From: a virus
Taxonomy: Duplodnaviria; Heunggongvirae; Uroviricota; Caudoviricetes
Length of the DNA stretch: 19,299 nt
Direction: 5' to 3' (one strand)
IMG/VR virus record: IMGVR_UViG_2579778784_000004
Shown: positions 545-19,299 of the stretch, piece after piece
Layout of the letters: every line of letters starts with the position of its first letter
Numbering within the stretch: position 1 is the stretch's first letter
The notes under the pieces: model-generated
What the model was told of the DNA's origin: nothing
Database searches by the model: none
The model's input: only the letters and a program-made list of their open reading frames with translations
Made by a program: the position numbers and the translations under genes

Positions 545-570
545 GGCCACGTTGCGTGGCCTTTTTATTT
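545..570 (+). terminator. Rho-independent terminator between the methylase gene and the holin (possible tR-prime analogue)
   Basis: Perfect 7-bp stem GGCCACG/CGTGGCC (545-551 / 555-561) with 3-nt loop, followed by TTTTTATTT. Confidence 0.7.
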
Positions 571-613
571 CCAACACAGCACCCGCAAATATCGCGAGGT
601 GAGAGATGACGAA

Positions 614-940: not shown

Positions 941-943
941 TTT

Positions 944-1860: not shown

Positions 1861-1898
1861 AAAAGTCTTATCATAAGATTTTTGTATATGGATGCATT

Positions 1899-2273: not shown

Positions 2274-2291
2274 TATATTAAGTGATTTATG

Positions 2292-2315
2292 GCCTCGCTT
2301 TTAGCGGGGCTTTTT
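2292..2315 (+). terminator. Rho-independent terminator downstream of the moron ORF
   Basis: Stem GCCTCGC/GCGGGGC (one G-U wobble) with loop TTTTA, followed by TTTTT. Confidence 0.65.
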
Positions 2316-2720
2316 CATATCTGAATCTCACCATGCATATCATCACCTGACTGGAACGTCAGGAGAATTCGTTACCGGGATTCGATAAAGGTATTCAAGC
2401 CTGACACATTATGCGCTGTATCGTCGCCGTATTCCCGCATTAACCATGACCGTAGCCCTACGGGGAACTCCTTCTGCGCGAGTGTGCGGGAATAATCAAA
2501 AACGATACACACCGGGTTTTTACCGCGTTTATGATTCGCGGGTTTGTCCCTCATGCTCGCCAGTCCTGTGCGGGGGTGGAAGAAACAGGACACTTACACT
2601 GATTCTTGTGAGCATGATGCTATGCCTTTCTGGATTATCCCGATGCCATTCATGCAGGGTGCTGTATCAGACGCTCGTCAGAGCTGTCAGGCTGACGGGT
2701 CCTCCCGGTGGGGTGGCCTG

Positions 2721-2742
2721 CCACGGGGCGGGAGCGTCGCGG
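2721..2742. other. Candidate cos site (cosN-like; putative 12-nt cohesive-end segment GGGCGGGAGCGT at 2726-2737)
   Basis: ccACGGGGCGGGAGCGTCGCGG resembles the lambda cos junction ACG|GGGCGGCGACCT|CGCGG as I recall it, and is followed by a TGAAATTT motif. It lies about 190 nt upstream of the small terminase start, the same spacing as cosN to Nu1 in lambda. Confidence 0.55.
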
Positions 2743-2911
2743 AAAAAGGCTAGTTTTTGAAATTTCATTCGTCATCACCACTACTGTAATAGATTGATAT
2801 TACAGTGGTTTTATTTTTATGGTGTCGATTTTGATTGTTTTTTGTTCATCACTAACACCGTTTGCCTAAAGTTGTTCGCAAGATGCATGTTTAAAACATT
2901 CTGGAGCGGGT

Positions 2912-3406
2912 ATGGATCGAGAGTTGAAAAATCTGACGCTGAATATCAGTCAACTGGCGGCACTGTCAGGTGTACATCGCCAGACTGCTGCGGCAAGGCT
3001 GCAAAATCTACCCGTTGCAGGGGGGCATGAAAGCAACCTCAAGCTTTATCGGGTGGTTGATATTGTGTCGGCATTTCTGGCATTACCACCGCCGGTTGCA
3101 GAAGGCGAAATGGACGCGCATGAGCGCAAAGCCTGGTATCAGTCTGAACGTGAGCGTCTTAAGTTCGAACAGGAAACGGCACAACTCATTCCGGCCAGTG
3201 ATGTCAGACGGGAGTTTGCCATCTGGGCAAAAGCGGTCGTGCAGGTGCTGGAGACATTACCGGATATTCTTGAACGTGACTGCGGTCTGCAGCCTGCCGC
3301 TGTGAGCCGTGTTCAGTTCATTATTGATGATCTGCGCGATCAGATAGCCCTGCGGGTGACTGAAGCAGGTGCGGATGATGAGGAGGAATTACAGCAGGAG
3401 GAGTAA
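2912..3406 (+). CDS. Terminase small subunit (Nu1-like, N-terminal HTH)
   Basis: 164 aa; N-terminal HTH-like segment (LTLNISQLAALSGVHRQTAAARLQ) and an acidic C-terminus, like lambda Nu1. Directly upstream of, and TAATG-coupled to, the large terminase gene. Confidence 0.8.
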   Translation: MDRELKNLTLNISQLAALSGVHRQTAAARLQNLPVAGGHESNLKLYRVVDIVSAFLALPPPVAEGEMDAHERKAWYQSERERLKFEQETAQLIPASDVRREFAIWAKAVVQVLETLPDILERDCGLQPAAVSRVQFIIDDLRDQIALRVTEAGADDEEELQQEE

Positions 3407-5508: not shown

Positions 5509-5717
5509 ACCAGAATGATATCGAAGCCATGATTCAGCGTTATACGGAAGCTGAAATGGCGGTGCTGGACGGAAAATCCGTCACCTTTAATGGTCAGCAG
5601 ATGACCATGGAAAACTTATCTGAGATCCGGCAGGGACGGCAGGAGTGGGAGCGCCGCCTTGCGGCTCTGATTACACGACGACGGGGGCATCCCGGGTACC
5701 GGCTGGCGAGGTTCTGA
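5505..5717 (+). CDS. Head-tail joining (head completion) protein, gpW-like
   Basis: 70 aa; C-terminal RRRGHPGY resembles lambda gpW C-terminus RRRGPAGF; ATGA overlap with the terminase stop; GGAGG 6 nt upstream of ATG 5505 (the track ORF starts two codons earlier at 5499). Confidence 0.75.
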   Translation: MNQNDIEAMIQRYTEAEMAVLDGKSVTFNGQQMTMENLSEIRQGRQEWERRLAALITRRRGHPGYRLARF

Positions 5718-7225
5718 TGGCAATTCTTGATGATGTGATTGGCGTTTTTTCACCAGGATGGAAAGCGGCAAGGCTGCGTTCCCGTGCGGTGATCCAGGCT
5801 TATGAGGCCGTAAAAACGACGCGGACACACAAAGCCCGGCGGGAGAACCGAACTGCCGACCAGTTAAGCCAGTACGGGGCCGTGTCGTTACGTGAGCAGG
5901 CCCGTTACCTTGATAACAACCACGATCTGGTTATTGGTGTATTTGACAAGCTGGAAGAACGGGTGGTGGGGAAAAACGGGATTATTGTCGAGCCACATCC
6001 GGTATTACGCAATGGGGCCATTGCCCGTGATCTGGCAGCGGAGATACGCACCCGATGGAGTGAATGGTCTGTCAGTCCGGAAGTCACCGGGCAGTTTACC
6101 CGTCCGATGCTGGAACGTCTGATGCTGCGTACCTGGCTGCGCGATGGTGAGGTGTTTGCCCAGATGGTTTCCGGGCGCATAAACAGCCTGACGCCTTCTG
6201 CCGGTGTTCATTTCTGGCTGGAGGCGCTCGAGCCGGACTTTATTCCCATGACCAGTGATGAGAGCAACAGGCTGAATCAGGGCGTGTTTGTTGATGACTG
6301 GGGGCGTCCCGAAAAATATCTGGTGTATAAAAGCCGTCCCGTATCCGGGCGGCAGATGGAAACCAAAGAAGTGGATGCAGAGCGAATGCTGCATCTTAAA
6401 TTTGTTCGCCGTCTGCACCAGATGCGCGGGACGTCTTTGTTGTCCGGTGTGCTGATCCGCCTCAGTGCCCTGAAAGAGTATGAAGATTCTGAGCTGACTG
6501 CAGCAAGGATCGCCGCTGCTCTGGGGATGTACATCCGCAAAGGCGACGGGCAGAGCTATGAACCGGATGGTAATGGCAGCAAGGATAAGGAACGCGAGCT
6601 TACCATTCAGCCAGGCATTATTTACGACGATCTGAAACCCGGCGAAGAAATCGGAATGGTGAAGTCGGATCGTCCCAATCCTAACCTTGAAACTTTTCGT
6701 AATGGTCAGTTGCGTGCCGTGGCGGCGGGCAGTCGTCTGAGTTTTTCCAGTACGGCACGCAACTATAACGGTACTTACAGCGCCCAGCGTCAGGAACTGG
6801 TTGAGTCTACTGATGGCTACCTGATCCTGCAGGACTGGTTTATTGGTGCCGTCACCCGCCCGATGTATCGTGCCTGGCTGAAACAGGCTGTGGCATCCGG
6901 TGTTATCAGGCTACCCCGCGATCTTGACCGTTCTTCACTGTATACCGCGGTGTATTCCGGACCGGTGATGCCGTGGATTGACCCTGTTAAGGAGGCTGAG
7001 GCCTGGAAAATCCAGATTCGTGGTGGAGCGGCGACAGAATCAGACTGGGTACGTGCAGGTGGTCGTAATCCGGATGATGTCAAACGTCGGCGCAAGGCCG
7101 AAATTGATGAAAACCGCAAGCTGGATCTGGTATTTGATACCGATCCAGCCAGTGATAAAGGAGGCAGCAGTGCCGCAACGAAACGACAGGAGCCGCAGCA
7201 TACCGACGACCAGTCCGAAGAATAA
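5717..7225 (+). CDS. Portal protein (lambda gpB family)
   Basis: 502 aa from ATG 5717 (TGATG overlap with the gpW-like stop); large acidic protein in the portal position between gpW and the protease/capsid gene. Confidence 0.85.
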   Translation: MAILDDVIGVFSPGWKAARLRSRAVIQAYEAVKTTRTHKARRENRTADQLSQYGAVSLREQARYLDNNHDLVIGVFDKLEERVVGKNGIIVEPHPVLRNGAIARDLAAEIRTRWSEWSVSPEVTGQFTRPMLERLMLRTWLRDGEVFAQMVSGRINSLTPSAGVHFWLEALEPDFIPMTSDESNRLNQGVFVDDWGRPEKYLVYKSRPVSGRQMETKEVDAERMLHLKFVRRLHQMRGTSLLSGVLIRLSALKEYEDSELTAARIAAALGMYIRKGDGQSYEPDGNGSKDKERELTIQPGIIYDDLKPGEEIGMVKSDRPNPNLETFRNGQLRAVAAGSRLSFSSTARNYNGTYSAQRQELVESTDGYLILQDWFIGAVTRPMYRAWLKQAVASGVIRLPRDLDRSSLYTAVYSGPVMPWIDPVKEAEAWKIQIRGGAATESDWVRAGGRNPDDVKRRRKAEIDENRKLDLVFDTDPASDKGGSSAATKRQEPQHTDDQSEE

Positions 7226-9197
7226 TTCCTGGTTCAGGATGCAGGCTGGTCACCAGAGTGACGCGGATATTTATATTTATGACGAGATTGGTTTCTGGGG
7301 TGTTACAGCGAAGCAGTTTATCAGTGATCTGAATGCACTGGGCGATATCACCCACATTAATCTCCATATTAATTCACCGGGTGGCGATGTCTTTGAAGGC
7401 ATCGCCATTTTTAATGCGCTGAAAACACATGGGGCGTCCATTACCGTTTATGTCGACGGTGTGGCGGCGTCAATGGCGTCGGTCATTGCGATGGTGGGAA
7501 ACCCGGTCATTATGCCGGAAAACACCTTCATGATGATTCATAAACCATTTGGCTTTACGGGCGGTGATGCGGAGGACATGCGCACCTATGCCGACCTGCT
7601 CGATAAGGTTGAGGCGGTTCTGTTACCCGCTTATGCACAGAAAACCGGGAAAACCACCGATGAAATTGCTGCCATGCTGGCGGATGAGACCTGGATGTCC
7701 GGTGCCGAATGTCTGGCACATGGATTTGCTGATCAGGTAACGCCAGCCGTTAAGGCAATGGCATGTATTCAGTCAAAACGTACAGAGGAATTTAAAAAGA
7801 TGCCGGAATCCATTCGAAACATGATTACTCCGCCACGCAACAGTGCTCCACGCGTACAGGATGATGAACCTGCAGCCTCCCGGACGCCAGTGCAGGCAGC
7901 AGCACCCGTGGTGGATGAAAACAGTATCCGTGCGCAGGTACTGGCAGAGCAAAAAGCGCGTGTAAACGGTATTAATGATCTGTTTGCCATGTTTGGCGGG
8001 CGTTATCAGACGCTGCAGGCTCAGTGTCTTGCCGATCCTGAATGTTCGCTGGAGCGGGCCCGCGAAAAGCTGTTGAACGAGATGGGGCGCGAGTCCACGC
8101 CATCCAATAAAAATACCCCGGCTCATATTTATGCCGGTAACGGTAATTTTGTGGGGGACGGGATCCGCCAGGCGCTGATGGCGCGTGCCGGATTTGAAAA
8201 AACCGAACGTGATAATGTCTACAACGGGATGACCCTGCGTGAATATGCCCGTATGTCACTGACTGAACGGGGTATTGGGGTTTCCAGTTATAACCCGATG
8301 CAGATGGTCGGTGCGGCGTTCACACACAGTACGTCTGACTTCGGTAATATTCTGCTGGATGTTGCGAACAAAGCCATTCTGCAGGGCTGGGAAGATGCCC
8401 CTGAAACCTATGAACAGTGGACGCGGAAAGGTCAGTTGTCTGATTTTAAAATTGCCCATCGTGTGGGTATGGGGGGCTTCAGTGCTCTGCGTCAGGTGCG
8501 TGAAGGGGCGGAATATAAATACGTCACCACCGGAGATAAACAGGCCACTATTGCACTGGCGACCTATGGCGAGCTGTTCAGTATCACCCGTCAGGCCATT
8601 ATCAATGATGATCTGAATATGCTGACCGATGTCCCGATGAAACTGGGCCGTGCGGCGAAATCCACTATTGCCGATCTGGTTTATGCCATTCTGACGTCTA
8701 ACCCGAAAATCTCCACAGATAATGTAAGTCTGTTCGATAAAGCGAAACATGCAAACGTACTGGAGAGCGCTGCAATGGACGTGGCATCGCTGGATAAAGC
8801 CCGCCAGTTGATGCGTGTTCAGAAAGAGGGGGAGCGTCATCTGAATATTCGTCCTGCGTTCGTACTGGTACCGACGGCGATGGAGTCTGTTGCTAACCAG
8901 GTCATTCGCTCCTCAAGTGTCAAGGGGGCTGACATTAACGCCGGTATTATTAACCCGGTGAAAGATTTTGCGACCGTTATTGCAGAGCCTCGTCTTGATG
9001 ATAACAGCCAGACCACTTTCTACCTGGCTGCGTCCAAAGGCTCCGATACGATTGAAGTGGCTTATCTCAACGGTGTGGATACGCCATATATTGATCAGAT
9101 GGAGGGCTTCAGTGTGGATGGCGTGACAACGAAAGTGCGTATTGACGCCGGTGTCGCGCCAGTTGATCACCGCGGTCTGGTGAAATGTACGGCGTAA
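7170..9197 (+). CDS. Fused prohead protease (ClpP-like serine peptidase) - scaffold-like linker - major capsid protein
   Basis: N-terminal ClpP-like region (INSPGGDVFEGIAIFNALKTH...ASMASVIAMVG...IHKPFGF), central Ala/Gln-rich linker, long C-terminal capsid-like domain. Start uncertain: GTG 7170 has a strong AAGGAGG Shine-Dalgarno (7158-7164); alternative ATG 7239. Confidence 0.8.
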   Translation: MPQRNDRSRSIPTTSPKNNSWFRMQAGHQSDADIYIYDEIGFWGVTAKQFISDLNALGDITHINLHINSPGGDVFEGIAIFNALKTHGASITVYVDGVAASMASVIAMVGNPVIMPENTFMMIHKPFGFTGGDAEDMRTYADLLDKVEAVLLPAYAQKTGKTTDEIAAMLADETWMSGAECLAHGFADQVTPAVKAMACIQSKRTEEFKKMPESIRNMITPPRNSAPRVQDDEPAASRTPVQAAAPVVDENSIRAQVLAEQKARVNGINDLFAMFGGRYQTLQAQCLADPECSLERAREKLLNEMGRESTPSNKNTPAHIYAGNGNFVGDGIRQALMARAGFEKTERDNVYNGMTLREYARMSLTERGIGVSSYNPMQMVGAAFTHSTSDFGNILLDVANKAILQGWEDAPETYEQWTRKGQLSDFKIAHRVGMGGFSALRQVREGAEYKYVTTGDKQATIALATYGELFSITRQAIINDDLNMLTDVPMKLGRAAKSTIADLVYAILTSNPKISTDNVSLFDKAKHANVLESAAMDVASLDKARQLMRVQKEGERHLNIRPAFVLVPTAMESVANQVIRSSSVKGADINAGIINPVKDFATVIAEPRLDDNSQTTFYLAASKGSDTIEVAYLNGVDTPYIDQMEGFSVDGVTTKVRIDAGVAPVDHRGLVKCTA

Positions 9198-9220
9198 ACG
9201 TCGCAGACAACAACTCTGAT

Positions 9221-9241
9221 GGCCCGTAAGGGCTTTTTTTG
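9221..9241 (+). terminator. Intrinsic terminator/attenuator downstream of the capsid gene
   Basis: GGCCC-GTAA-GGGC hairpin followed by TTTTTTT; a second 7-bp hairpin CAGCCCC-TGTAC-GGGGCTG at 9252-9270 lies just before the next gene. Confidence 0.55.
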
Positions 9242-9283
9242 TACCTGAAATCAGCCCCTGTACGGGGCTGTGCGGAGACAGTT

Positions 9284-9607
9284 ATGGCAAAGAATTTTGT
9301 AGAAGAAGGAAAAACGGTGGCGATTGTTGCCAGTGCAGCCATCAGCAGCGGAGATCTGGTGCAGGTGGGTGATGTTTTTGCGGTGGCGCTGACCGATATT
9401 CCACAGGGTGAAACAGGCGACGGCATGACCGAAGGTGTGTTTATGCTGCCTAAGCTGAAAACGGATGACATGAAAACGGGTAAGAAGGTTTATCTGAAGT
9501 CCGGAAAAGTTCAGCTGACTAACAGCGGCTCTGATCCGCTGGTCGGGGTTGTCTGGGCAGATGCCGGAACCAGTGCAGAAGAAGTGCCGGTAAAACTCAA
9601 TGTCTGA
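9284..9607 (+). CDS. Small head protein, DUF2190-like (putative head decoration/cement protein)
   Basis: 107 aa from ATG 9284 (GGAG Shine-Dalgarno at 9273-9276); Gly/Val-rich, predicted beta-rich; located directly after the major capsid gene. The track ORF start at 9239 falls inside the upstream hairpins. Confidence 0.65.
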   Translation: MAKNFVEEGKTVAIVASAAISSGDLVQVGDVFAVALTDIPQGETGDGMTEGVFMLPKLKTDDMKTGKKVYLKSGKVQLTNSGSDPLVGVVWADAGTSAEEVPVKLNV

Positions 9608-9875
9608 TCCCTTTTCCCGGTTGGCAGCGCGTATGGATGCTATCACGGTCAGAAAGATGGGAAAGACAGCCTCGATTAATGATGTCGATATGACTGTGAT
9701 CCCGGGAGAAACACTGGCAGAGCTGAATGCTCTGTCCGGACCTGCGGTCTCTCTGGTGGTGTTTTCTTCGGGATACCGCCCACGGCGCGGGGATCGCGTT
9801 GTTTATGACGGACAACAATGGACGGTCACACGGCATGAACGCTTTAACGGTAAGCCAATGATCTTTATTGAGTAA
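9600..9875 (+). CDS. Head-tail attachment protein (lambda gpFII-like)
   Basis: 91 aa; SDPFSRLAARMDAITVRKMGKTASI resembles the lambda FII N-terminus and PRRGDRVVYDGQQWTV the FII RRGDTLTIGEENFWV segment, as I recall them. Confidence 0.75.
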   Translation: MSDPFSRLAARMDAITVRKMGKTASINDVDMTVIPGETLAELNALSGPAVSLVVFSSGYRPRRGDRVVYDGQQWTVTRHERFNGKPMIFIE

Positions 9876-9886
9876 AGAGGTGTGGG

Positions 9887-10465
9887 ATGAAGGGGCTTGA
9901 GAATGCCATCCGCAATCTGAACAGCCTTGATACCCGTATGGTGCCACAGGCCAGCGCATGGGCGATAAACCGTGTGGCACAGAAAGCGGTCTCGGTTGCC
10001 ACCCGGCAGGTTGCCGGGAATACCGTTGCGGGAGATAACCAGGTGAAAGGGATCCCCCTGAAACTGGTACGTCAGCGTGTCCGGGTGTTTAAAGCCAGTC
10101 CGTCAGGAAAAATGACGGCCAGGATCCGCGTTAACCGGGGCAATCTGCCCGCCATTAAGCTGGGGACAGCCCGGGTCAGACTGGCCCGGCGTGGTGGAAA
10201 ACTGCAGTACCGTGGCAGTGTGCTGAAGGTGGGTAAATATCTTTTCCGGGATGCGTTTATTCAGCAACTGGCGAATGGTCGCTGGCATGTGATGCGGCGT
10301 ATTGATGGCAAAAATCGTTACCCCATTGATGTGGTGAAAATCCCGCTGTCCGGACCGCTGACACAGGCATTTGAAGATGCCCGCGACCGCATCATTGCTG
10401 CGGAAATGCCGAAACAGCTGGGGTATGCACTGAAACAACAACTGAGGTTATGGCTGACCCGATGA
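9887..10465 (+). CDS. Z: Tail completion protein Z
   Basis: 192 aa, same length as lambda Z; FIQQLANGRWHVMRRIDGKNRYPIDVVKIPLSGPLTQAF matches lambda Z (FIQQLKNGRWHVMQRVAGKNRYPIDVVKIP) closely. Confidence 0.92.
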   Translation: MKGLENAIRNLNSLDTRMVPQASAWAINRVAQKAVSVATRQVAGNTVAGDNQVKGIPLKLVRQRVRVFKASPSGKMTARIRVNRGNLPAIKLGTARVRLARRGGKLQYRGSVLKVGKYLFRDAFIQQLANGRWHVMRRIDGKNRYPIDVVKIPLSGPLTQAFEDARDRIIAAEMPKQLGYALKQQLRLWLTR

Positions 10466-10863
10466 ACCGACATACACAAATCCGCCAGGTCGTACTGGCA
10501 CGCCTTCGGGAACAGTGTGGAGACAGCGCCACGTTTTTTGACGGGCTTCCGGCATTTGTTGATGCGCAGGAACTGCCTGCCGTGGTGGTGTGGCTGAGTG
10601 ATGCTCAGTACACCGGAAAAATGACGGATGAAGATGACTGGCAGGCTGTTCTGCATATTGCTGTCTTCATCCGGGCACAGGCACCGGATTCAGAGCTGGA
10701 TATGTGGATGGAGAGCACCATTTTCCCGGCCCTGAATGATGTACCGGCACTTTCCGGACTCATCGACACCCTGATCCCACTCGGTTTTAACTATCAACGT
10801 GATAATGAGATGGCCACCTGGGCGATGGCGGAAATCACGTACCAGATCACGTACACGAATTAA
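10462..10863 (+). CDS. U: Tail terminator protein U
   Basis: 133 aa from ATG 10462 (ATGA overlap with the Z stop); ATFFDGLPAFVDAQELPAVVVWLSDAQYTG and PDSELDMWMES match lambda U. Confidence 0.92.
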   Translation: MNRHTQIRQVVLARLREQCGDSATFFDGLPAFVDAQELPAVVVWLSDAQYTGKMTDEDDWQAVLHIAVFIRAQAPDSELDMWMESTIFPALNDVPALSGLIDTLIPLGFNYQRDNEMATWAMAEITYQITYTN

Positions 10864-10873
10864 GGAGGTGGCA

Positions 10874-11617
10874 ATGACCACACCAAATCCACTGGCAAAG
10901 ACGAAAGGTGCGGGGACGACGTTCTGGATGTATACCGGCAACGGCGACGCATTTGCGAACCCTTTGTCGGACACTGACTGGCTGCGTCTTGCGATGGTGA
11001 AGGATCTGCAACCTGGCGAAATGACCGCTGATGCAGAAGATGATACTTATCTCGATGATGAAGATGCAGACTGGAAAACGACAACCCAGGGGCAGAAATC
11101 AGTCGGTGATACTTCGGCGACGCTGGCCTGGCGTCCGGGTGACAGCGGGCAGAAAAAACTGGTTCAGTTGTTCGACTCCGGTGAAGTCTGCGCGTTTCGT
11201 ATCAAATATCCCAACGGTACTGTTGATGTTTTCCGTGGCTGGCTGAGTTCACTGGGTAAAACCATTGCCTCAAAAGACGTGATGACCCGCACTGTGAAAA
11301 TCAGCGGTGTGGGGCGTCCGTATCTGGCAGAGGAAGGCACTGAAACAGTGAGCGTTACCGGGCTGACGGTGGCACCGGCATCTGCCAGTGTAAAAGTGGG
11401 AGCAACCACCACGCTGACCTTTACAGTAAAACCTGACGGAGCCAGTGACAAAGCGATCAGTGTGCATTCGTCAGATCCACAGACTGCCACGGTGACCCTG
11501 AACGGGCTTGTAGCCACGGTGAAAGGCGTGAAGCAGGGCAGTGTCAGCATTGTGGGCATGACCGCTGACGGGAATTTTGTGGCTGTGGCTGCGGTGACTG
11601 TCAGCGCTGCAGGTTAA
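10874..11617 (+). CDS. V: Major tail protein V with C-terminal Ig-like (Big_2-type) domain
   Basis: AAGGAGG Shine-Dalgarno then ATG 10874; KGAGTTFWMYTGNGDAFANPLSD, YLDDEDADW and FPNGTVDVFRGW match lambda V; the C-terminal approximately 90 aa are Thr/Val/Ser-rich as in the lambda V Ig-like domain. Confidence 0.95.
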   Translation: MTTPNPLAKTKGAGTTFWMYTGNGDAFANPLSDTDWLRLAMVKDLQPGEMTADAEDDTYLDDEDADWKTTTQGQKSVGDTSATLAWRPGDSGQKKLVQLFDSGEVCAFRIKYPNGTVDVFRGWLSSLGKTIASKDVMTRTVKISGVGRPYLAEEGTETVSVTGLTVAPASASVKVGATTTLTFTVKPDGASDKAISVHSSDPQTATVTLNGLVATVKGVKQGSVSIVGMTADGNFVAVAAVTVSAAG

Positions 11618-11637
11618 CAGGACGATACTCATCATTT

Positions 11638-11661
11638 GCCCCGGTTATCCGGGGCTTTTTT
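11638..11661 (+). terminator. Intrinsic terminator/attenuator downstream of V
   Basis: 7-bp stem GCCCCGG/CCGGGGC, loop TTAT, followed by TTTTTT. Confidence 0.7.
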
Positions 11662-11677
11662 GCAGGTGGAGAACATG

Positions 11678-12064
11678 ATGTTTCTGAAACAGGGCACGTT
11701 TAATTATGAAAAACAGTCCGTGGTGCTCAGTGAGCTGTCCGGGCTGCAGAGAATTGAATATCTGGCGTTTGTTCAGCAGCGAACGGCAAAGTTTGATGCC
11801 GGTGAGGGAGAACTGCCGGAGGCTGAACGACAGATTGCTTTTCTGCGGATGGGGATGGATATCAATGCCTGGCTGGTTTCCCGCTCACTGTGGAATGCGG
11901 ATCAGTCTAAGGATGTAGAGACGCTTTGCGCATCCGTTATTACAACATGGTCGTATGATGCCCTGGGTGCGGGGGCGGAGATGGTTCTGTCGCTGAGCGG
12001 TATGGGGGCCATTGATAATGCCGGGGATGATGAGCATGAGGCGCTGACGCCGGAAAAGTCCTGA
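11678..12064 (+). CDS. G: Tail assembly chaperone G
   Basis: 128 aa from ATG 11678 (GGTGGAG Shine-Dalgarno); MFLKQ... start, LSELSGLQRIEYLA and LSGM motifs as in lambda G. Confidence 0.85.
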   Translation: MFLKQGTFNYEKQSVVLSELSGLQRIEYLAFVQQRTAKFDAGEGELPEAERQIAFLRMGMDINAWLVSRSLWNADQSKDVETLCASVITTWSYDALGAGAEMVLSLSGMGAIDNAGDDEHEALTPEKS

Positions 12065-12402
12065 CGCGGGAAATGCAGTTTGTCATGCGGCTTGCCCGGG
12101 AGTTCCGGCGGGCAGACTGGCGGCGGATGCTGTCGGAAATGTCGGCCACTGAGCTTGGTGAGTGGGGCGATTATTTCCGGATGCAGAGCTTCAGTGATGT
12201 GTGGATGGATGCGCAGTTTGCCTCGCTGAAGGCATTGATCGTGAGAATGGTGTCCGGCAGCAGTGATGCTGCGGTGGCTGATTTCAGCCTTTTACCGGAA
12301 GAGAACGGGATACCGGAGCGAACGGACGAAGAACTGATGCATCTTGGGGAAGGTATTTCCGGAGGTGTGCGTTATGGACCAGATAGCCAACCTGGTCATT
12401 GA
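11678..12402 (+). CDS. GT: Tail assembly chaperone G-T fusion, made by -1 programmed ribosomal frameshift near 12052-12058
   Basis: The -1 frame is open from 12040 to the stop at 12400-12402 and overlaps the last 7 codons of G. The A-AAG slip position (12054-12058) sits two codons before the G stop. The downstream frame encodes a T-like segment (LAREFRRADWRRMLSEMSATELGEW). Confidence 0.65.
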
Positions 12403-15400
12403 TTTGGGGATTGATGCGGCAGAGTTTAAAAATGAAATCCCCCGTATCAAAAACCTTCTGAATGGTGCAGCCAGCGATGCAGAACGGTCTTCTGCCCGTA
12501 TGCAGCGTTTTATGGAGCGTCAGACTCAGGCCGCCCGGCAGACAACGCAGGCGGCGTCTTCGGCTGCAACAGCCGCATCCGTCCATGCGCAGACGGTGGA
12601 GAAGAACGCACAGGCTCATGAACGCATGGCCCGCGAGGTGGAGAAAACCCGCCAGCGTATGGAGGCGCTGAGCCAGAAAATGCGCGAGGAACAGGCGCAG
12701 GCCATGGCTCTGGCGGAGGCTCAGGATAAAGCGGCTGCTGCGTTTTATCGTCAGATTGACAGTGTGAAACAGGCCAGTGCGGGTCTGCAGGAATTACAGC
12801 GTATTCAGCAGCAGATCCGACAGGCCAGAAACAGTGGCGGGATTGGTCAGCAGGATTATCTGGCGCTGATTTCTGAGGTTACGGCGAAAACCCGTGTTCT
12901 TACACAGGCTGAGGAAGAGGCTACCCGACAGAAAGTGGCGTTTATCCGTCAGCTTAAAGAGCAGGCAACCCGCCAGAATCTTTCTTCTTCTGAGTTGCTT
13001 CGTGCTAAGGCTGCCCAACTGGGGGTAAGCAGTGCTGCAGAAGTGTATATCCGCAAAATGGAGCAGGCAGGAAAAGCCACGCATTCGCTGGGGCTGAAAA
13101 GTGCAGCGGCCCGTCAGGAGATAGGCGTTCTGATAGGTGAACTGGCCCGCGGAAATTTAGGTGCGCTGAGGGGATCCGGAATAACGCTGGCTAACCGTGC
13201 CGGGTGGATAGACACATTGATGTCACCGAAAGGCATGATGCTTGGCGGGGTTATTGGCGGTATTGCCGCGGCTGTCTATGGTCTGGGTAAAGCCTGGTAT
13301 GACGGTCAGAAGGAGGGGGAAGAATTTAACCGCCAGCTGTCGCTGACGGGGCATTATGCCGGAGTCACTGCCGGGCAGCTGTGGACGCTCAGTCGTGCTA
13401 TTTCCGGGAATGGTATCACGCAACATGCTGCAGCCGGTGCGCTGGCTCAGGTGGTGGGGAGTGGTGCATTTCGTGGAAACGATATCGGTATGGTGGCGAG
13501 AGCTGCCGCACAGATGGAGCGATCGGTTGGCCAGTCGGTCAGCGATACCATAAATCAGTTTAAGCGGCTGAAGGATGATCCTGTAAATGCCGCGAAGGCT
13601 CTGGACAATGAGCTGCATTTTCTTACTGCCACTCAGCTTGAGCAGATACGCGTCCTTGGGGAACAGGGGCGGTCCAGTGATGCGGCACGGATAGCCATGT
13701 CTGCACTGGCAGAGGAAACCGGTCGGCGTACTGCGGATATTGATAATAACCTCAATGCGCTGGGCAGTACGCTGAAGTATCTGTCTGATTTATGGAGTCG
13801 TTTCTGGGATGCGGCCATGAATATTGGTCGTGAAGACTCGCTGGATGAACAGATTTCCGCTTTACAGGAGAAAGTGTCGCGGGCGAAAAGACTCCCCTGG
13901 ACGGCATCATCTTCTCAGGTTGAATACGATCAGCAGCGTCTTAACGATCTTCAGGAGAAAAAACGCCAGAAGGATTTGCAGGATGCAAAAGAGCAGGCAG
14001 AGCGGAATTATCAGGAGCAACAGAAACGCCGTAATGCTGAAAATGCTGCACTGAACCGGATGAATGAAACGGAAGCTGCACGACATCAGCGTGAAATTGC
14101 GCGTATTAATGCCATGCAGTACGCCGATCAGGCTGTCAGGGATGCGGCGATACAACGTGAAAATGAACGTTACGAGAAAGCCCTGGCATCCGGTAAGAAA
14201 AAAACACGCGAAACCCGTAATGATGAGGCCACCCGGTTATTGCTGCAGTACAGTCAGCAACAGGCACAGGTGGAAGGACAGATTGCTGCTGCAAGACAGT
14301 CAGCAGGCATTGCCACTGACAGGATGACAGAAGCGCATAAACAGCTTCTGGCTCTGCAGCAGCGCATCAGCGATCTGGACGGGAAAAAACTGACGGCAGA
14401 TGAAAAGAGTGTGCTGGCCCGTAAAGATGAACTGATTCAGGCACTGACGCTGCTGGATGTAAAACAGCAGGAGCTTCAGAAACAGACGGCACTCAACGAT
14501 CTGAAGAAAAAAACAATTCAGCTGACCAGTCAACTGGCTGAAGAAGAGCGCGCTCAGCGTCAGCAACATGACCTGGATATCGCCACGGTTGGTATGGGTG
14601 ATCAGCAGCGGCAGCGATATCAGGTACAACTGAGTCTTCGCCAGAAATACCAGCAACAGCTGGAGCAGTTGAGGCGGGATAGTGAGCAGAAAGGGACATA
14701 TAACACGGATGACTACAGAAAGGCCGAGCAGGCGCTGACGGAGAGTCTGAACCGACAACTGAATGAGAATCGCCGTTACTGGCAACAGCTTGAAATTGCT
14801 CAGGGTAATTGGAAAAACGGAGTCCTGCGTGCACTCCAGAATGTCACTGAGAATGCGGATAACACAGCCGGGACAGTGGAACAGTTGTTCACGTCTGCGT
14901 TCAGTAGCATGAGTGACTGGCTGGCGACATTCTGTACTACAGGCAAACTCAATTTCAAATCTTTTACTTCTTCTGTGCTGTCAGATATGTCCAGAATCAT
15001 GGCTCAGATAGCTTTAATGAAAGCGGTAAAAGGCATTGCTTCCGCGCTGCCTTTTGATTTTGTAGCCAATGCTGATGGCGGTGTTTATCAGTCGGCTGAT
15101 TTGAGTCGCTACAGTGGCACGGTGGTTAACCGTCCGACGTTTTTTGCTTTTGCAAAAGGCGCGGGTGTGATGGGGGAAGCTGGACCTGAAGCCATTCTGC
15201 CACTGCGTCGTGGTGCTGACGGTAAGCTGGGGGTTGTGGCGGATATTGGTGGTTCAGGTATGGCGATGTTTGCCCCGCAGTACAACATCGAGATCAATAA
15301 CGATGGCACGAACGGGCAGATAGGTCCTGCTGCCCTGAAGGTGGTTTATGACCTTGGGAAAAAAGCGGCAGCGGACTTTATGCAACAGCAGGCCCGTGAT

Positions 15401-15430
15401 GGTGGTCGGTTAAGTGGAGCATATCGGTAA
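12374..15430 (+). CDS. H: Tail tape measure protein H
   Basis: 1018 aa; N-terminus MDQIANLVIDLGIDAAEF resembles lambda H (DLVVDLSLDAARF) and C-terminus INNDGTNGQIGPAALKVVYD...RDGG matches lambda H; long Gln/Ala/Arg/Glu-rich central coiled-coil region; GGAGG Shine-Dalgarno before ATG 12374. Confidence 0.93.
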   Translation: MDQIANLVIDLGIDAAEFKNEIPRIKNLLNGAASDAERSSARMQRFMERQTQAARQTTQAASSAATAASVHAQTVEKNAQAHERMAREVEKTRQRMEALSQKMREEQAQAMALAEAQDKAAAAFYRQIDSVKQASAGLQELQRIQQQIRQARNSGGIGQQDYLALISEVTAKTRVLTQAEEEATRQKVAFIRQLKEQATRQNLSSSELLRAKAAQLGVSSAAEVYIRKMEQAGKATHSLGLKSAAARQEIGVLIGELARGNLGALRGSGITLANRAGWIDTLMSPKGMMLGGVIGGIAAAVYGLGKAWYDGQKEGEEFNRQLSLTGHYAGVTAGQLWTLSRAISGNGITQHAAAGALAQVVGSGAFRGNDIGMVARAAAQMERSVGQSVSDTINQFKRLKDDPVNAAKALDNELHFLTATQLEQIRVLGEQGRSSDAARIAMSALAEETGRRTADIDNNLNALGSTLKYLSDLWSRFWDAAMNIGREDSLDEQISALQEKVSRAKRLPWTASSSQVEYDQQRLNDLQEKKRQKDLQDAKEQAERNYQEQQKRRNAENAALNRMNETEAARHQREIARINAMQYADQAVRDAAIQRENERYEKALASGKKKTRETRNDEATRLLLQYSQQQAQVEGQIAAARQSAGIATDRMTEAHKQLLALQQRISDLDGKKLTADEKSVLARKDELIQALTLLDVKQQELQKQTALNDLKKKTIQLTSQLAEEERAQRQQHDLDIATVGMGDQQRQRYQVQLSLRQKYQQQLEQLRRDSEQKGTYNTDDYRKAEQALTESLNRQLNENRRYWQQLEIAQGNWKNGVLRALQNVTENADNTAGTVEQLFTSAFSSMSDWLATFCTTGKLNFKSFTSSVLSDMSRIMAQIALMKAVKGIASALPFDFVANADGGVYQSADLSRYSGTVVNRPTFFAFAKGAGVMGEAGPEAILPLRRGADGKLGVVADIGGSGMAMFAPQYNIEINNDGTNGQIGPAALKVVYDLGKKAAADFMQQQARDGGRLSGAYR

Positions 15431-15925
15431 TGGAGACGTTTCACTGGAAAGTGCGCCCGGATATGAATGTGGTATCAGAGCCGAAAGTGGTGACAGTGAA
15501 GCTGGGCGATGGTTATGAACAGCGTCGTGCGGCGGGACTGAATAACCAGTTGTCGACTTACAGCGTGACGATACGTGTTCGTAAATGTGAACACCCATCT
15601 TTAAAAGCCTTTCTGGAACGGCACGGAGCTGCCCTGAAGGTGGTTTATGACCTTGGGAAAAAAGCGGCAGCGGACTTTATGCAACAGCAGGCCCGTGATG
15701 GTGGTCGGTTAAGTGGAGCATATCGGTAATGGAGACGTTTCACTGGAAAGTGCGCCCGGATATGAATGTGGTATCAGAGCCGAAAGTGGTGACAGTGAAG
15801 CTGGGCGATGGTTATGAACAGCGTCGTGCGGCGGGACTGAATAACCAGTTGTCGACTTACAGCGTGACGATACGTGTTCGTAAATGTGAACACCCATCTT
15901 TAAAAGCCTTTCTGGAACGGCACGG
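15329..15925 (+). repeat. Perfect tandem direct duplication (two ~298-bp units, period 299 nt) spanning the H 3-prime end and the M 5-prime end
   Basis: 15329-15626 and 15628-15925 are identical by base-by-base reading; each unit holds the last ~34 codons of H, the TAATG junction and the first 66 codons of M. Confidence 0.85.
15430..15729 (+). CDS. Duplication-generated chimeric ORF: M residues 1-66 fused in frame to the C-terminal 33 residues of H
   Basis: 99-aa ORF METFHWKV...FLERHG|AALKVVYDLGKKAAADFMQQQARDGGRLSGAYR; start overlaps the H stop (TAATG), and its own stop overlaps the start of the intact M copy (TAATG). Confidence 0.45.
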   Translation: METFHWKVRPDMNVVSEPKVVTVKLGDGYEQRRAAGLNNQLSTYSVTIRVRKCEHPSLKAFLERHGAALKVVYDLGKKAAADFMQQQARDGGRLSGAYR

Positions 15926-16058
15926 TGGCGTCCGCGCATTTCAGTGGACGCCACCTTATGACTGGAAGCCGATCAGGGTGGTTTGTCGTAAATGGTCGGC
16001 AAGCGTGGGGGCGTTGTGGGTAACCATAACGGCAGATTTTGAACAGGTCGTGGCATAG
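15729..16058 (+). CDS. M: Tail tip protein M
   Basis: 109 aa, same length as lambda M; FRWKV...GDGY...TYSV...WTPPY...KWS...FEQVV pattern matches lambda M. Confidence 0.93.
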   Translation: METFHWKVRPDMNVVSEPKVVTVKLGDGYEQRRAAGLNNQLSTYSVTIRVRKCEHPSLKAFLERHGGVRAFQWTPPYDWKPIRVVCRKWSASVGALWVTITADFEQVVA

Positions 16059-16067
16059 GAGGCTCTG

Positions 16068-16766
16068 ATGCAGGATATTCCACAGGAAACACATCATGAG
16101 ACGACACGCCTCACTCAGTCAGCCCAGGTGGTGCTCTGGGAAATCGATCTGACAGAGGTCGGTGGTGAACGTTATTTTTTCTGTAATGAGCAGAACGAAA
16201 AAGGTGAGCCGGTTACCTGGCAGGGGCGGCAGTATCAGGCATACCCTATTCAGGGGACGGGATTTGAACTGAACGGCAAGGGCAGTGCTGCCCGTCCGAC
16301 ACTGACGGTTTCTAACCTGCACGGAATGGTCACCGGGATGGCGGAAGACCTGCAGAGTCTGGTCGGCGGAACGGTGGTCAGGCGTAAGGTTTACGCCCGT
16401 TTTCTGGATGCGGTGAACTTCGTCAACGGAAACAGTGACGCCGATCCGGAGCAGGAGGTGATCAGCCGCTGGCGCATCGAGCAGTGCAGCGAACTGAGCG
16501 CGGTCAGTGCCTCTTTTGTACTGTCCACGCCGACGGAAACGGACGGTGCTGTTTTTCCGGGGCGCATCATGCTGGCTAATACCTGCACCTGGACCTATCG
16601 CGGTGATGAGTGCGGTTATCACGGTCCGGCTGTCGCTGATGAATATGACCAGCCGACGTCCGATATCACGAAGGATAAATGCAGCAAATGCCTGAGTGGT
16701 TGTAAGTTTCGCAATAACGTCGGCAACTTTGGCGGCTTCCTTTCCATTAACAAACTTTCGCAGTAA
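16068..16766 (+). CDS. L: Tail tip protein L (Fe-S cluster cysteines at the C-terminus)
   Basis: 232 aa; near-identical to lambda L as recalled (VVLWEIDLTEVGGERYFFCNEQNEKGEPVTWQGRQYQ..., CSKCLSGCKF); AGGAGG Shine-Dalgarno. Confidence 0.95.
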   Translation: MQDIPQETHHETTRLTQSAQVVLWEIDLTEVGGERYFFCNEQNEKGEPVTWQGRQYQAYPIQGTGFELNGKGSAARPTLTVSNLHGMVTGMAEDLQSLVGGTVVRRKVYARFLDAVNFVNGNSDADPEQEVISRWRIEQCSELSAVSASFVLSTPTETDGAVFPGRIMLANTCTWTYRGDECGYHGPAVADEYDQPTSDITKDKCSKCLSGCKFRNNVGNFGGFLSINKLSQ

Positions 16767-16770
16767 TCCC

Positions 16771-17514
16771 ATGACACAGACAGAATCAGCGATTCTGGCG
16801 CACGCCCGGCGATGTGCGCCAGCGGAGTCGTGCGGCTTCGTGGTGAGAACGCCGGAGGGGGAAAGATATTTTCCCTGCGTGAATATCTCCGGTGAGCCGG
16901 AGGCGTATTTCCGGATGTCGCCGGAGGACTGGCTGCGGGCAGAGATGCAGGGTGAGATTGTGGCGCTGGTCCACAGCCACCCCGGTGGTCTGCCCTGGCT
17001 GAGTGAGGCCGACCGGCGGCTGCAGGTGCAGAGTGATTTGCCGTGGTGGCTGGTCTGCCGGGGTGAGATTCATAAATTCCGCTGTGTGCCGCATCTTACC
17101 GGGCGGCGCTTTGAGCACGGGGTGACGGACTGTTACACGCTGTTCCGGGATGCTTATCATCTGGCGGGGATTGAGATGCCGGATTTTCATCGTGAGGATG
17201 ACTGGTGGCGTCATGGTCAGAATCTCTATCTGGATAATCTGGAGGCCACAGGGCTGTATCAGGTGCCGTTGTCAGCGGCGCAGCCGGGCGATGTGCTGCT
17301 GTGCTGTTTTGGTTCATCGGTGCCGAATCATGCCGCTATTTACTGCGGCGACGGCGAGCTGCTGCACCATATTCCTGAACAACTGAGCAAACGAGAGAGG
17401 TATACCGACAAATGGCAGCGACGCACACACTCCCTCTGGCGTCACCGGGCATGGCACGCATCTGCCTTTACGGGGATTTGCAACGATTTGGCCGCCGCAT
17501 CGACCTTCGTGTGA
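16771..17514 (+). CDS. K: Tail tip assembly protein K (JAMM/MPN and NlpC/P60-like regions); long form, alternative start at ATG 16915
   Basis: 247 aa from ATG 16771 just after the L stop. HSHPGG...SEAD JAMM-type motif. The shorter form from MSPEDW (16915) would be 199 aa, the length usually given for lambda K. Confidence 0.88.
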   Translation: MTQTESAILAHARRCAPAESCGFVVRTPEGERYFPCVNISGEPEAYFRMSPEDWLRAEMQGEIVALVHSHPGGLPWLSEADRRLQVQSDLPWWLVCRGEIHKFRCVPHLTGRRFEHGVTDCYTLFRDAYHLAGIEMPDFHREDDWWRHGQNLYLDNLEATGLYQVPLSAAQPGDVLLCCFGSSVPNHAAIYCGDGELLHHIPEQLSKRERYTDKWQRRTHSLWRHRAWHASAFTGICNDLAAASTFV

Positions 17515-18059
17515 AAACGGGGGCCGAAGCCATCCGGGCGCTGGCCACACAGCTCCCGGCGTTTCGTCAGAAACTGAATGACGGCTGGTATCAGGTGCGC
17601 ATTGCCGGGCGTGATGCAGGCGAAAATGAATTATCTGCCCGTCTTAATGAGCCGCTGGCAAATGGTGCCGTGATCCACATCGTGCCGCGTCTGGCGGGAG
17701 CTAAAAGTGGCGGTGTGTTTCAGGTGGTGCTGGGGGCGGCGCTGATTGCGGTGGCATGGTGGAATCCTGTGGGTTGGCTGGGTGCCGCGGCTGTATCGGG
17801 CATGTATGCGGCAGGGGCCAGTATGATCCTGGGCGGAGTGGCGCAGATGCTGGCACCGAAAGCCAGGACGCCCACGGCAGCCAGTACAGATAACGGCAAA
17901 CAGAACACGTATTTCTCCTCACTGGATAACATGGTTGCCCAGGGCAATGTTCTGCCCGTTCTGTACGGTGAAATGCGCGTGGGGTCACGCGTGGTTTCTC
18001 AGGAGATCAGCACGGCAGACGAAGGGGACGGTGGTCAGGTTGTGGTGATTGGTCGCTGA
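17412..18059 (+). CDS. I: Tail tip assembly protein I (ubiquitin-like N-terminal domain)
   Basis: 215 aa; MAATHTLPLASPGMARICLYGDLQRFGRRIDLRVKTGAEAIRALATQLPAF and C-terminal NGKQNTYFSSLDNMVAQGNVLPVLYGEMRVGSRVVSQEISTADEGDGGQVVVIGR match lambda I; overlaps the K 3-prime end by about 100 nt. Confidence 0.93.
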   Translation: MAATHTLPLASPGMARICLYGDLQRFGRRIDLRVKTGAEAIRALATQLPAFRQKLNDGWYQVRIAGRDAGENELSARLNEPLANGAVIHIVPRLAGAKSGGVFQVVLGAALIAVAWWNPVGWLGAAAVSGMYAAGASMILGGVAQMLAPKARTPTAASTDNGKQNTYFSSLDNMVAQGNVLPVLYGEMRVGSRVVSQEISTADEGDGGQVVVIGR

Positions 18060-18077
18060 TGCAAAATGTTTTATGTG

Positions 18078-18100
18078 AAACCGCCTGCGGGCGGTTTTGT
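18078..18100 (+). terminator. Hairpin plus T-run between I and J (terminator-like attenuator)
   Basis: AAACCGCC-TGCG-GGCGGTTTTGT: GC-rich 5-bp stem extended by A-T pairs, followed by a T-run; about 20 nt before the J ribosome-binding site. Confidence 0.5.
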
Positions 18101-18119
18101 CGTTTATGGAGCGTGAGGA

Positions 18120-19299
18120 ATGGGTAAAGGCAGCAGTAAGGGGCATACCCCGCGCGAAGCGAAGGACAACCTGAAGTCCACGCAGTTGCTGAGTGTGATC
18201 GATGCCATCAGCGAAGGGCCGGTTGAAGGTCCGGTGGAGGGATTAAAAAGCGTGCTGCTGAACAGTACGCCGGTGCTGGACACTGAGGGGAATACCAACA
18301 TATCCGGTGTCACGGTGGTGTTCCGTGCCGGTGAGCAGGAGCAGACACCGCCGGAGGGGTTTGAATCCTCCGGCTCCGAGACGGTGCTCGGTACAGAAGT
18401 GAAATATGACACGCCGATCACCCGGACCATCACGTCGGCAAACATCGACCGTCTGCGCTTTACCTTCGGTGTACAGGCACTGGTGGAAACCACCTCAAAG
18501 GGTGACAGGAATCCGTCGGAAGTCCGCCTGCTGGTTCAGATACAGCGTAATGGTGGCTGGGTGACGGAAAAAGACATCACCATTAAAGGCAAAACCACCT
18601 CACAGTATCTGGCATCGGTGGTGGTGGGTAACCTGCCGCCGCGCCCGTTCAATATCCGGATGCGCAGGATGACGCCGGACAGCACCACAGACCAGCTGCA
18701 GAACAAAACGCTCTGGTCGTCATACACCGAAATCATCGATGTGAAACAGTGCTACCCGAACACGGCACTGGTCGGCGTACAGGTGGATTCGGAGCAGTTC
18801 GGCAGCCAGCAGGTGAGCCGTAATTATCATCTGCGCGGGCGTATTCTGCAGGTGCCGTCGAACTATAACCCGCAGATGCGGCAATACAGCGGTATCTGGG
18901 ACGGAACGTTTAAGCCAGCATACAGCAATAACATGGCCTGGTGTCTGTGGGATATGCTGACCCATCCACGCTACGGCATGGGGAAACGTCTTGGTGCGGC
19001 GGATGTGGACAAATGGGCGCTGTATGTCATCGGCCAGTACTGCGACCAGTCAGTGCCGGACGGCTTTGGCGGCACGGAGCCGCGCATCACCTGTAATGCG
19101 TACCTGACCACACAGCGCAAGGCGTGGGATGTGCTCAGTGATTTCTGCTCGGCGATGCGCTGTATGCCGGTATGGAACGGGCAGACGCTGACGTTCGTGC
19201 AGGACCGACCGTCGGATAAGGTGTGGACCTATAACCGCAGTAATGTGGTGATGCCGGATGATGGCGCGCCGTTCCGCTACAGCTTCAGCGCCCTGAAAG
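18120..19299 (+). CDS. J: Tail tip / host specificity protein J, N-terminal 393 codons (3-prime end outside the window)
   Basis: Translation from ATG 18120 gives MGKGSSKGHTPREAKDNLKSTQLLSVIDAISEGP..., matching the lambda J N-terminus as recalled; open to the window end, so the six-frame track lists no closed ORF here. Confidence 0.93.
   Translation, partial: MGKGSSKGHTPREAKDNLKSTQLLSVIDAISEGPVEGPVEGLKSVLLNSTPVLDTEGNTNISGVTVVFRAGEQEQTPPEGFESSGSETVLGTEVKYDTPITRTITSANIDRLRFTFGVQALVETTSKGDRNPSEVRLLVQIQRNGGWVTEKDITIKGKTTSQYLASVVVGNLPPRPFNIRMRRMTPDSTTDQLQNKTLWSSYTEIIDVKQCYPNTALVGVQVDSEQFGSQQVSRNYHLRGRILQVPSNYNPQMRQYSGIWDGTFKPAYSNNMAWCLWDMLTHPRYGMGKRLGAADVDKWALYVIGQYCDQSVPDGFGGTEPRITCNAYLTTQRKAWDVLSDFCSAMRCMPVWNGQTLTFVQDRPSDKVWTYNRSNVVMPDDGAPFRYSFSALK

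Follow-up and report, generated by a model that had tools for sequence, protein, structure and literature searches.

Organization of the H/M Region and of the Repeat

The window analyzed here is the entire 19,299-bp contig JJNT01000059.1 from a 2014 multi-contig draft genome of E. coli (GCA_000696545.1). Around the border between the tail genes H and M, the following features were recorded:

12374-15430, plus strand: intact H gene encoding the tail tape measure protein of 1018 aa (gene call; PF06791, PF24622 and PF09718; match to lambda gpH, PDB 8iyk_H)
15329-15626, plus strand: first copy of the repeat unit, comprising the C-terminal 33 codons of H, the TAATG overlap, and M codons 1-65 plus 2 nt
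15430-15729, plus strand: chimeric open reading frame of 99 aa, joining M residues 1-66 to the last 33 residues of H (translation; KDO87695.1 / WP_286364064.1)
15627, no strand: junction base A, probably filler or erroneous; T in both parental flanks and not a natural allele
15628-15925, plus strand: second copy of the repeat unit, starting with the first base past a site that distinguishes two prophage types
15729-16058, plus strand: intact M gene encoding the tail tip protein of 109 aa (match to lambda gpM, PDB 8iyk_M)

The deduced M protein covers PF05939 over its full length (135.7 bits) and matches PDB 8iyk_M with an E-value of 1.1e-36, and H matches PDB 8iyk_H with an E-value of 4e-21, 9e7m_Ha being aligned to its last ~32 residues. 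The chimera, in turn, aligns to positions 1-74 only of the 108 positions of the PF05939 profile. The H stop codon TAA (15428-15430) overlaps the ATG at 15430-15432, and the chimeric frame ends in a second TAATG, so that both stop/start overlaps are preserved, as an earlier sequence-only reading of the contig had stated; the upstream GGAG is retained as well. Translation also reproduced the coding consequences described in that reading, namely intact H, a 99-aa in-frame fusion of M 1-66 to the last 33 residues of H, and intact M. The fusion stays in frame because 299 leaves a remainder of 2 on division by 3, the same shift (+2) by which the reading frames of H and M are offset.

A repeat search and a scripted string comparison showed that bases 15329-15626 and 15628-15925 are identical at 298 of 298 positions, in agreement with the perfect tandem duplication across H/M reported before. 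TRF returned one array at 15329-15925 (period 299, 2.0 copies, 100% matches, score 1194) and no second tandem repeat anywhere in the 19.3-kb window. The previously given unit of 299 bp holds as the TRF period, but not as the templated length: each copy contributes 298 templated bases, to which one odd base, the A at 15627, is added. This A is foreign to the locus, as T occupies both of its potential templates, 15328 and 15926. The sequence spanning the junction of the two copies contains ...GGAACGGCACGGAGCTGCCCTGAAGG...

The parental breakpoints are flanked by CCT followed by GCTGCC on the left and by CACGG followed by TGGCG on the right. T is the sole base that these flanks could share, and A is found at the junction in its place; no microhomology was thus detected at the parental breakpoints. 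The GCT that had been proposed as junctional microhomology merely opens the unit, whereas TGGCG follows the second copy. Furthermore, a natural or paralogue allele at M codon 66 (GGT>GGA) was considered as the source of the A and was rejected, since none of the 1,893 homologous places examined across 1,771 complete genomes of E. coli carries it.

These observations bear on the possibility that the isolate's prophage underwent a genuine and very recent 299-bp tandem duplication. Such an event would have proceeded by homology-independent illegitimate recombination or end joining and would have left one untemplated or mutated junction base. The deposited sequence does hold both copies, the TAATG overlaps, the GGAG motif and the in-frame chimera; that the copies are 100% identical is in keeping with a recent origin, and graph assemblers normally output only k-mers found in reads. 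In E. coli and phage lambda, copies duplicated in tandem by a real event are typically joined at a microhomology of a few bases; none exists in the contig, and the A at its junction corresponds to neither flanking base and to no natural allele. The in-frame outcome has a chance expectation of one in three. Taking these points together with the comparative and geometric results presented below, a genuine duplication is considered unlikely.

Occurrence of the Junction and of the Chimera in Other Genomes

The comparison with related genomes, which the earlier reading had recommended, revealed that the duplication is absent from them. All close relatives are single-copy and span the region in 802 bp, as compared with 1101 bp in the query. 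A 54-mer across the junction had 0 matches among 5,426 complete genomes of E. coli and among 50,697 phage records, and a 26-mer search allowing any base at the junction gave 0 matches in IMG/VR, the GTDB representative genomes and the JGI metagenomes.

At the protein level, the chimera forms a one-member cluster from one contig among ~15 billion proteins, and the normal M protein was found on more than 1000 contigs. Among 5.8 billion cluster representatives, both halves of the M-H architecture were covered by the query itself only. Matches of odd length were examined as candidates for further M-H chimeras, and those inspected turned out to be frameshift or contig-end scrambles. Accordingly, no recurrence of the architecture that would indicate a functional M-H fusion family was observed in the other phages or genomes searched. 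This uniqueness across all genomes, phages, metagenomes and proteins searched argues against a genuine duplication.

Prophage Types and the Distinguishing Site Next to the Repeat

Two types of paralogous lambdoid prophage, A and B, were distinguished; related strains carry both. The features relevant to this distinction are:

15328, no strand: dimorphic site CCT/CCG (Pro, synonymous), T in prophage type A and G in type B
13865-17192, no strand: A-type segment, identical (0 differences) to the PG20180057 prophage of type A, lying in otherwise B-type surroundings and containing the repeat

Site 15328 directly precedes the repeat unit and is the last site distinguishing A from B before 434 nt that are identical in both types. 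The G allele is common, with exact 61-mer matches in at least 686 complete-genome records. Moreover, the two co-resident prophages of PG20180057 differ only at 15328 within the 380 nt compared around the unit, and this site opens one of only four stretches of the contig that are at least 299 nt long and identical in the two PG20180057 types.

Contig segments show 0 differences from the two PG20180057 prophages over kilobases, and for this reason the sequenced strain is regarded as closely related to genomes carrying both prophage types. Like these close relatives, it very probably harbors at least two paralogous lambdoid prophages.

A switch of prophage type exactly at the junction was considered and dismissed, since a single A-type relative is identical to the contig over more than 1 kb to the left and to the right of it. 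It is likewise unlikely that the B-A-B mosaic of the contig arose from a low-k hop or from random bubble popping, given that more than 100 consecutive sites are of one type and that the switch intervals measure 35-37 nt. Regarding the mosaic itself, near-natural equivalents exist for its left switch; neither its right switch nor the exact H protein was seen outside this contig.

Geometry of the Contig Ends

The position of the repeat was compared with that of the contig ends. Two pieces of the contig are proposed:

1-15626, no strand: putative piece C1, position 299 counted from either end being a distinguishing site (299 and 15328)
15628-19299, no strand: putative piece C2, whose true start would be the equivalent of 15329

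At the left end, the contig first departs from the A-type prophage (L001, L003, L005) at position 299, i.e., after 298 nt from the contig start, and the end itself sits within a 325-nt block (-26 to 298) that is identical in types A and B. At the right side of C1, the distance is the same (15626 - 15328 + 1 = 299). The unit length of 298 therefore equals the value of k-1 as gauged independently from the left end of the contig.

In a null simulation, random tandem duplications were placed on the contig. For a duplication to begin directly behind a distinguishing site and to keep its whole unit within type-identical sequence, the probability was P = 3.4e-4, decreasing to P ~5e-7 once the length of 298 was also required, the geometric coincidences having been recognized post hoc. 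A genuine duplication offers no account of why its start and length should equal assembly-node boundaries, which has a probability of ~3e-4 to 5e-7 under random placement.

The right end of the contig is not explained by the reference genomes compared. IHE3034 differs at the predicted site 19001, but it also differs at later sites, from 19010 onward, and the 19001 allele followed by 298 identical nt occurs in no complete genome. Furthermore, the contig passes without a scar through the remaining three of the four stretches of at least 299 nt shared by the PG20180057 types, from which it follows that the second prophage cannot equal the PG20180057 types throughout.

An Assembly Join as the Probable Origin of the Repeat

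Based on contig geometry and comparative absence, the repeat is in all likelihood an assembly-join artefact, in which a k-1 overlap between two pieces would have been left untrimmed. An assembly artefact had been listed as an alternative in the sequence-only reading, and it is now favored by the uniqueness of the junction, the foreign base and the node-boundary geometry. The reading's headline scenario, a microhomology-mediated duplication giving a translated chimera that could interfere in tail-tip assembly, finds no support in view of the missing microhomology, the foreign base, the unique junction and the node-boundary coincidence.

In the proposed scenario, the genome would have been assembled with a graph assembler (de Bruijn or string) at a k or fixed read length of 299. 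A copy-specific node would extend from 298 nt before the first distinguishing site to 298 nt after the last one, and the next node, common to both prophage copies, would begin at the first base past the last distinguishing site, neighboring nodes overlapping by k-1 = 298 nt. C1 (1-15626) would represent the copy-specific node and C2 (from 15329) the following one. A later joining or scaffolding step may then have abutted C1 and C2, leaving between them a single base that is filler or an error (A, 15627), and the unmerged 298-nt overlap would appear as a perfect tandem duplication. The in-frame M-H reading frame would be a by-product of this join; most likely, the 99-aa chimera is a product of the assembly and does not represent a real gene.

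For this model we infer both a k or read length of 299 and a joining step between C1 and C2. Reads of ~300 nt would be required, plausibly from a 2014 MiSeq 2x300 run or, in the case of a string-graph assembler, reads of 299 nt. Among de Bruijn assemblers, a k of 299 would be exceptionally large, and this counts against the join model, as do the fact that the filler is a called base A and not N, the unexplained right contig end, the stretches crossed without a scar and the post hoc recognition of the geometry. An initial variant assuming a read length of exactly 300 with a miscalled last base was replaced, since only 299 plus a filler base fits the left contig end.

Several elements of the model have precedents. 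Variant sites derived from repeats were described at a set distance from the ends of contigs, namely k for de Bruijn and the read length for string-graph assemblers; this signature was shown for ABySS, ALLPATHS-LG, SOAPdenovo2 and SGA (PMC5368935). SOAPdenovo2 was also reported to put gaps between contigs that actually overlap (PMC5368935), and short-read assemblies contain erroneous tandem duplications adjoining gaps (PMC5632298).

A further possibility is that the bulk genome lacks the junction and that it entered the sequencing data either from a minority subpopulation, such as rearranged induced phage DNA, or from chimeric library fragments, and was then taken up by the assembler. Lambdoid prophages induce spontaneously and thereby yield heterogeneous extra copies, and an artefact of ligation or chimera formation would be consistent with the odd base and the missing homology. 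However, assemblers normally prune low-frequency chimeras, and such an origin leaves unaccounted for both the unit start right after the paralogue-distinguishing site and the equality of the unit length with the contig-end overhang. It is therefore deemed very improbable.

Implications for Tail Gene Annotation

The biological significance of the repeat is regarded as small. The database entries WP_286364064.1 and KDO87695.1, annotated as 'phage tail protein' in RefSeq/UniRef, most likely represent an artefact and should not be taken as evidence for tail-gene innovation; the apparent gene gain in the prophage is most likely artefactual, too. From a methodological point of view, the case illustrates that reads are not required for recognizing an assembly-join artefact: the start and length of the unit are compared with how far the first paralogue-distinguishing site lies from the contig end. 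The same geometry check is worth using on other 'perfect tandem duplications' in draft contigs.

If the duplication were real, the M(1-66)::H(C-terminal 33) protein would be a translated product of the region between H and M, with a possible disturbing effect on the assembly of the tail tip. In lambda, gpH residues 818-849 form a trimeric coiled coil that binds the gpI trimer (PDB 9e7m chain Ha, 8iyk_H; PMC12617516, PMC11101478). The duplicated H segment is homologous to this region, making a biological effect conceivable. The 99-aa protein, in which a truncated gpM N-terminus would be joined to exactly the tape-measure coiled-coil segment that docks on the gpI trimer, would then be expressed at M-like translational coupling and might serve as a decoy, poisoning the tail tips of its own or of related lambdoid phages during assembly, which is an improbable and speculative scenario. 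The M part of the chimera is devoid of the last 43 residues of the domain, and an autonomous fold is therefore questionable. A true duplication would constitute a natural experiment on the interaction of the gpH C-terminus with gpI; nothing in the present results favors it.

Comparison with Known Systems

The contig shows the same gene order as the lambda tail-tip module H-M-L-K-I-J (PDB 8iyk, 8iyl, 8k35, 9e7m), with matching Pfam families, and it shares the TAATG overlap of H and M with its relatives. The number of H/M junctions is different: two occur in this contig alone, whereas one is present in lambda and in all 1,770+ related E. coli prophages.

Genuine short-homology duplications of E. 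coli and lambda are likewise arranged head-to-tail with initially identical copies, and they can fuse genes in frame. The contig differs from them in its missing microhomology and its foreign junction base. Moreover, genuine duplications have no reason to coincide with assembly-node boundaries, whereas the unit of the contig does.

Parallels are also provided by false duplications in vertebrate genomes, which are also perfect and local, are confined to one assembly and give rise to false gene models. Those duplications vanish in better assemblies and were verified with long reads, whereas the present call is made from geometry and comparative absence. The work on contig-end signatures (PMC5368935) differs from the present case in that its topic was variant-calling bias, the k values studied were 70-121 as compared with 299, and the gap here consists of one called base instead of Ns. 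The signature itself is shared by this contig: counted from either end of C1, position 299 is a distinguishing site, and the 298-nt overlap equals the repeated unit.

The H/M repeat as deposited and its coding consequences

The window covers contig JJNT01000059.1 in full (19,299 bp; E. coli draft assembly GCA_000696545.1). It carries an ordinary lambdoid late region, with the expected Pfam family for each gene, in the order terminase, portal, ClpP-like protease/capsid fusion, Z, U, V-like tube protein, G, T, H (tail tape measure), M (tail tip), L, K, I and the start of J. Tandem Repeats Finder reported one array in the whole window, at 15329-15925 (period 299, 2.0 copies, 100% matches, score 1194), and the perfect tandem repeat across the H/M junction described in the sequence-only reading is thus present in the deposited sequence. 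A repeat search, with string identity confirmed by script, showed that 15329-15626 (copy 1) and 15628-15925 (copy 2) agree at 298/298 nt (100%). Of the claimed 299-bp perfect duplication, these 298 nt stood, and the remaining base did not: the single A at 15627 between the copies is untemplated by either flank, the possible templates 15328 and 15926 both being T. Moreover, the GCT microhomology suggested for the junction is absent; TGGCG stands after copy 2.

The proposed coding consequences (intact H, a 99-aa chimera, intact M and the TAATG junctions) were borne out by translation:

Reading frames at the H/M junction
15428-15430, + strand: stop codon TAA of H, overlapping the ATG at 15430-15432
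15430-15729, + strand: chimeric ORF of 99 aa, M residues 1-66 joined to the C-terminal 33 residues of H, closing in the second TAATG
15729-16058, + strand: intact M, 109 aa

The chimera is in frame because 299 equals 2 modulo 3, which is also the frame offset from H to M. It matched the M family at profile positions 1-74 of 108 only.

Search for the junction and the chimera in other sequences

Close relatives, namely complete E. coli genomes (identity up to 100%) and phages including PhiR47_1, HannyBb, mEp460 and cdtI, were all single-copy, the 1101-nt repeat-spanning query aligning to them as two pieces over 802 bp. A junction-centred 54-mer, built so that neither half seeds alone, had no match in 5,426 complete E. 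coli genomes and 50,697 phage records, and a 26-mer allowing any junction base had none in IMG/VR, GTDB representative genomes and JGI metagenomes. Among approximately 15 billion proteins, the chimera (KDO87695.1 / WP_286364064.1) formed a one-member cluster from one contig, whereas normal M was represented on more than 1000 contigs. A homology search revealed no second protein spanning both the M and H halves, and the odd-length matches inspected were frameshifted or contig-end scrambles. Furthermore, A at M codon 66 was found in 0 of 1,893 homologous places, and the junction base is therefore not a natural allele.

In an M homologue (protein P0028) on a 1,228-bp ENA metagenome contig, a 28-residue insertion follows '...FLERH', after which the sequence continues with 'LLERHGG...'; this disruption lies at most one codon from the junction position of the window repeat and may be a small insertion or one more assembly scramble. 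Several singleton ORFs from Logan/ENA/NCBI draft contigs (proteins P0017, P0021, P0046, P0075, P0085, P0098) link parts of M or of the C-terminal end of H with phage sequences of unrelated kinds, among them Z-like and lysozyme sequences, which shows that it is not rare for draft assemblies to contain scrambled gene models around this conserved H/M region.

Paralogous prophages and contig composition

Strain PG20180057 and similar strains harbor two paralogous lambdoid prophages whose structural modules are nearly identical: type A (locus L003, at dusA) and type B (locus L004). The window was compared with both, the repeat being collapsed:

Segments of the contig by prophage type
1-3500 and 10001-13901: type B, 0 differences from B
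13865-17192: type A, 0 differences from A
17158-19299: type B, 0 differences from B

Since 0-difference matches to both types were obtained, the sequenced strain is closely related to genomes carrying A and B. The repeat is located inside the A-type segment.

Along the contig the PG20180057 types alternate as B-A-B, with switch intervals at 13865-13901 and 17158-17192. This mosaic could have arisen by real gene conversion (3.3 kb) between prophages residing in the same host or could be one more problem of the assembly. Its H protein (KDO87694.1) occurs on one contig only among the approximately 15 billion proteins. For the left switch region natural equivalents exist at 99.7-99.8%; for the right one no complete genome matched above 99.1%. 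In the otherwise near-identical dusA prophage of E. coli SCU-484 (L001, 21373-27289), K, I, J, lom and the tail fibre genes are all annotated as frameshifted or partial pseudogenes, which suggests either that this 'complete' assembly contains indel errors or that the prophage is decaying. In related prophages, defence-type cargo is located directly downstream of the tail fibre genes: strain 24AR0142 has a TIR-domain anti-phage reverse transcriptase there (L005, 26881-28485), and IHE3034 has a reverse transcriptase plus SLATT-domain protein (L006, 26626-28525).

Geometry of the repeat and origin of the junction

A single base separates the two PG20180057 prophages within the 380 nt read around the unit. 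It corresponds to 15328, which adjoins copy 1 directly on the left, and is T in type A and G in type B; G is a common allele there, at least 686 records having an exact 61-mer match to it. Left of 15328, A/B differences are frequent; the 434 nt right of it are identical, and in the whole contig only three other A/B-identical stretches reach 299 nt. Copy 1 ends at 15626 (15328 + 298), and the first base of copy 2 corresponds to 15329. At the left contig end, position 299 is the first site separating the contig from type A (L001, L003, L005). As the A/B-identical block there extends from -26 to 298, the start of the contig does not coincide with the edge of this block and instead lies precisely 298 nt ahead of the distinguishing site. 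Piece 1-15626 hence has a copy-distinguishing site at position 299 counted from either end; the next piece opens with the first 299-mer without such a site, and the 298 nt by which it overlaps piece 1-15626 are the repeated unit itself. In a null simulation, tandem duplications placed at random started right after a distinguishing site with a wholly type-identical unit at P = 3.4e-4, and at ~5e-7 when length 298 was also required, both coincidences having been noticed post hoc.

Comparable patterns are documented. Copy-distinguishing sites lie at position k from contig ends in ABySS, ALLPATHS-LG and SOAPdenovo2 assemblies and at read length in SGA assemblies, and a scaffolder can put gaps between contigs that overlap (PMC5368935). 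Short-read assemblies also contain erroneous tandem duplications beside gaps (PMC5632298). Observed here are the identity of the copies, a junction base foreign to both flanks, the absence of the junction from the collections searched and the two 298/299 coincidences; beyond these, we infer a second prophage in the strain, the k or read-length value and a joining step. A graph assembler with k (or a fixed read length) of 299 would have broken the path where the two prophage copies become indistinguishable, and the copy-specific piece 1-15626 and the piece from 15329 would later have been abutted with one filler or erroneous base, the 298-nt overlap staying unmerged. Such a k is unusually large and implies ~300-nt reads, plausible for 2014, or a string-graph assembler.

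Against such a join, the filler base reads A instead of N. At the right contig end (19299, inside gene J), IHE3034 is polymorphic (G/A) at the predicted site 19001 and also later (19010 onward); 0 complete genomes carry the 19001 allele followed by the identical 298 nt, and this end lacks the position-299 signature among the compared references. Moreover, the contig shows no scar in the three remaining A/B-identical stretches of 299 nt or more, so a second prophage in this strain must differ somewhere from the PG20180057 types. Because of these points, the inferred k and the post hoc nature of the coincidences, some room is left for a genuine duplication private to the isolate, which is nevertheless improbable given the uniqueness, the foreign base and the 298/299 geometry, and less still for a junction confined to minority or chimeric molecules. 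The repeat is thus very probably an assembly artefact, an alternative that the sequence-only reading had itself named beside the biological duplication. The chimera is accordingly not regarded as a new biological feature; it is likely a false gene model, carried into RefSeq and UniRef.

Comparison with the lambda tail

At the G/T junction (12045-12075, end of G, CCGGAAAAGTCCTGA), the lambda-type slippery heptamer GGGAAAG is absent, its three matches in the window lying elsewhere; a G-T frameshift site, if used, would therefore be unlike that of lambda. M matched lambda gpM (PDB 8iyk_M, E = 1.1e-36), and the H C-terminus matched lambda gpH (8iyk_H). In lambda, gpH 818-849 forms a trimeric coiled coil bound to the gpI trimer within the tip, and the hexameric gpM ring sits above gpL/gpJ (PMC12617516, PMC11101478). 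The gpH chain of PDB 9e7m (32 residues) aligns with the same H C-terminal segment as is repeated in the window, and the chimera, if real, would therefore carry the gpI-docking helix.
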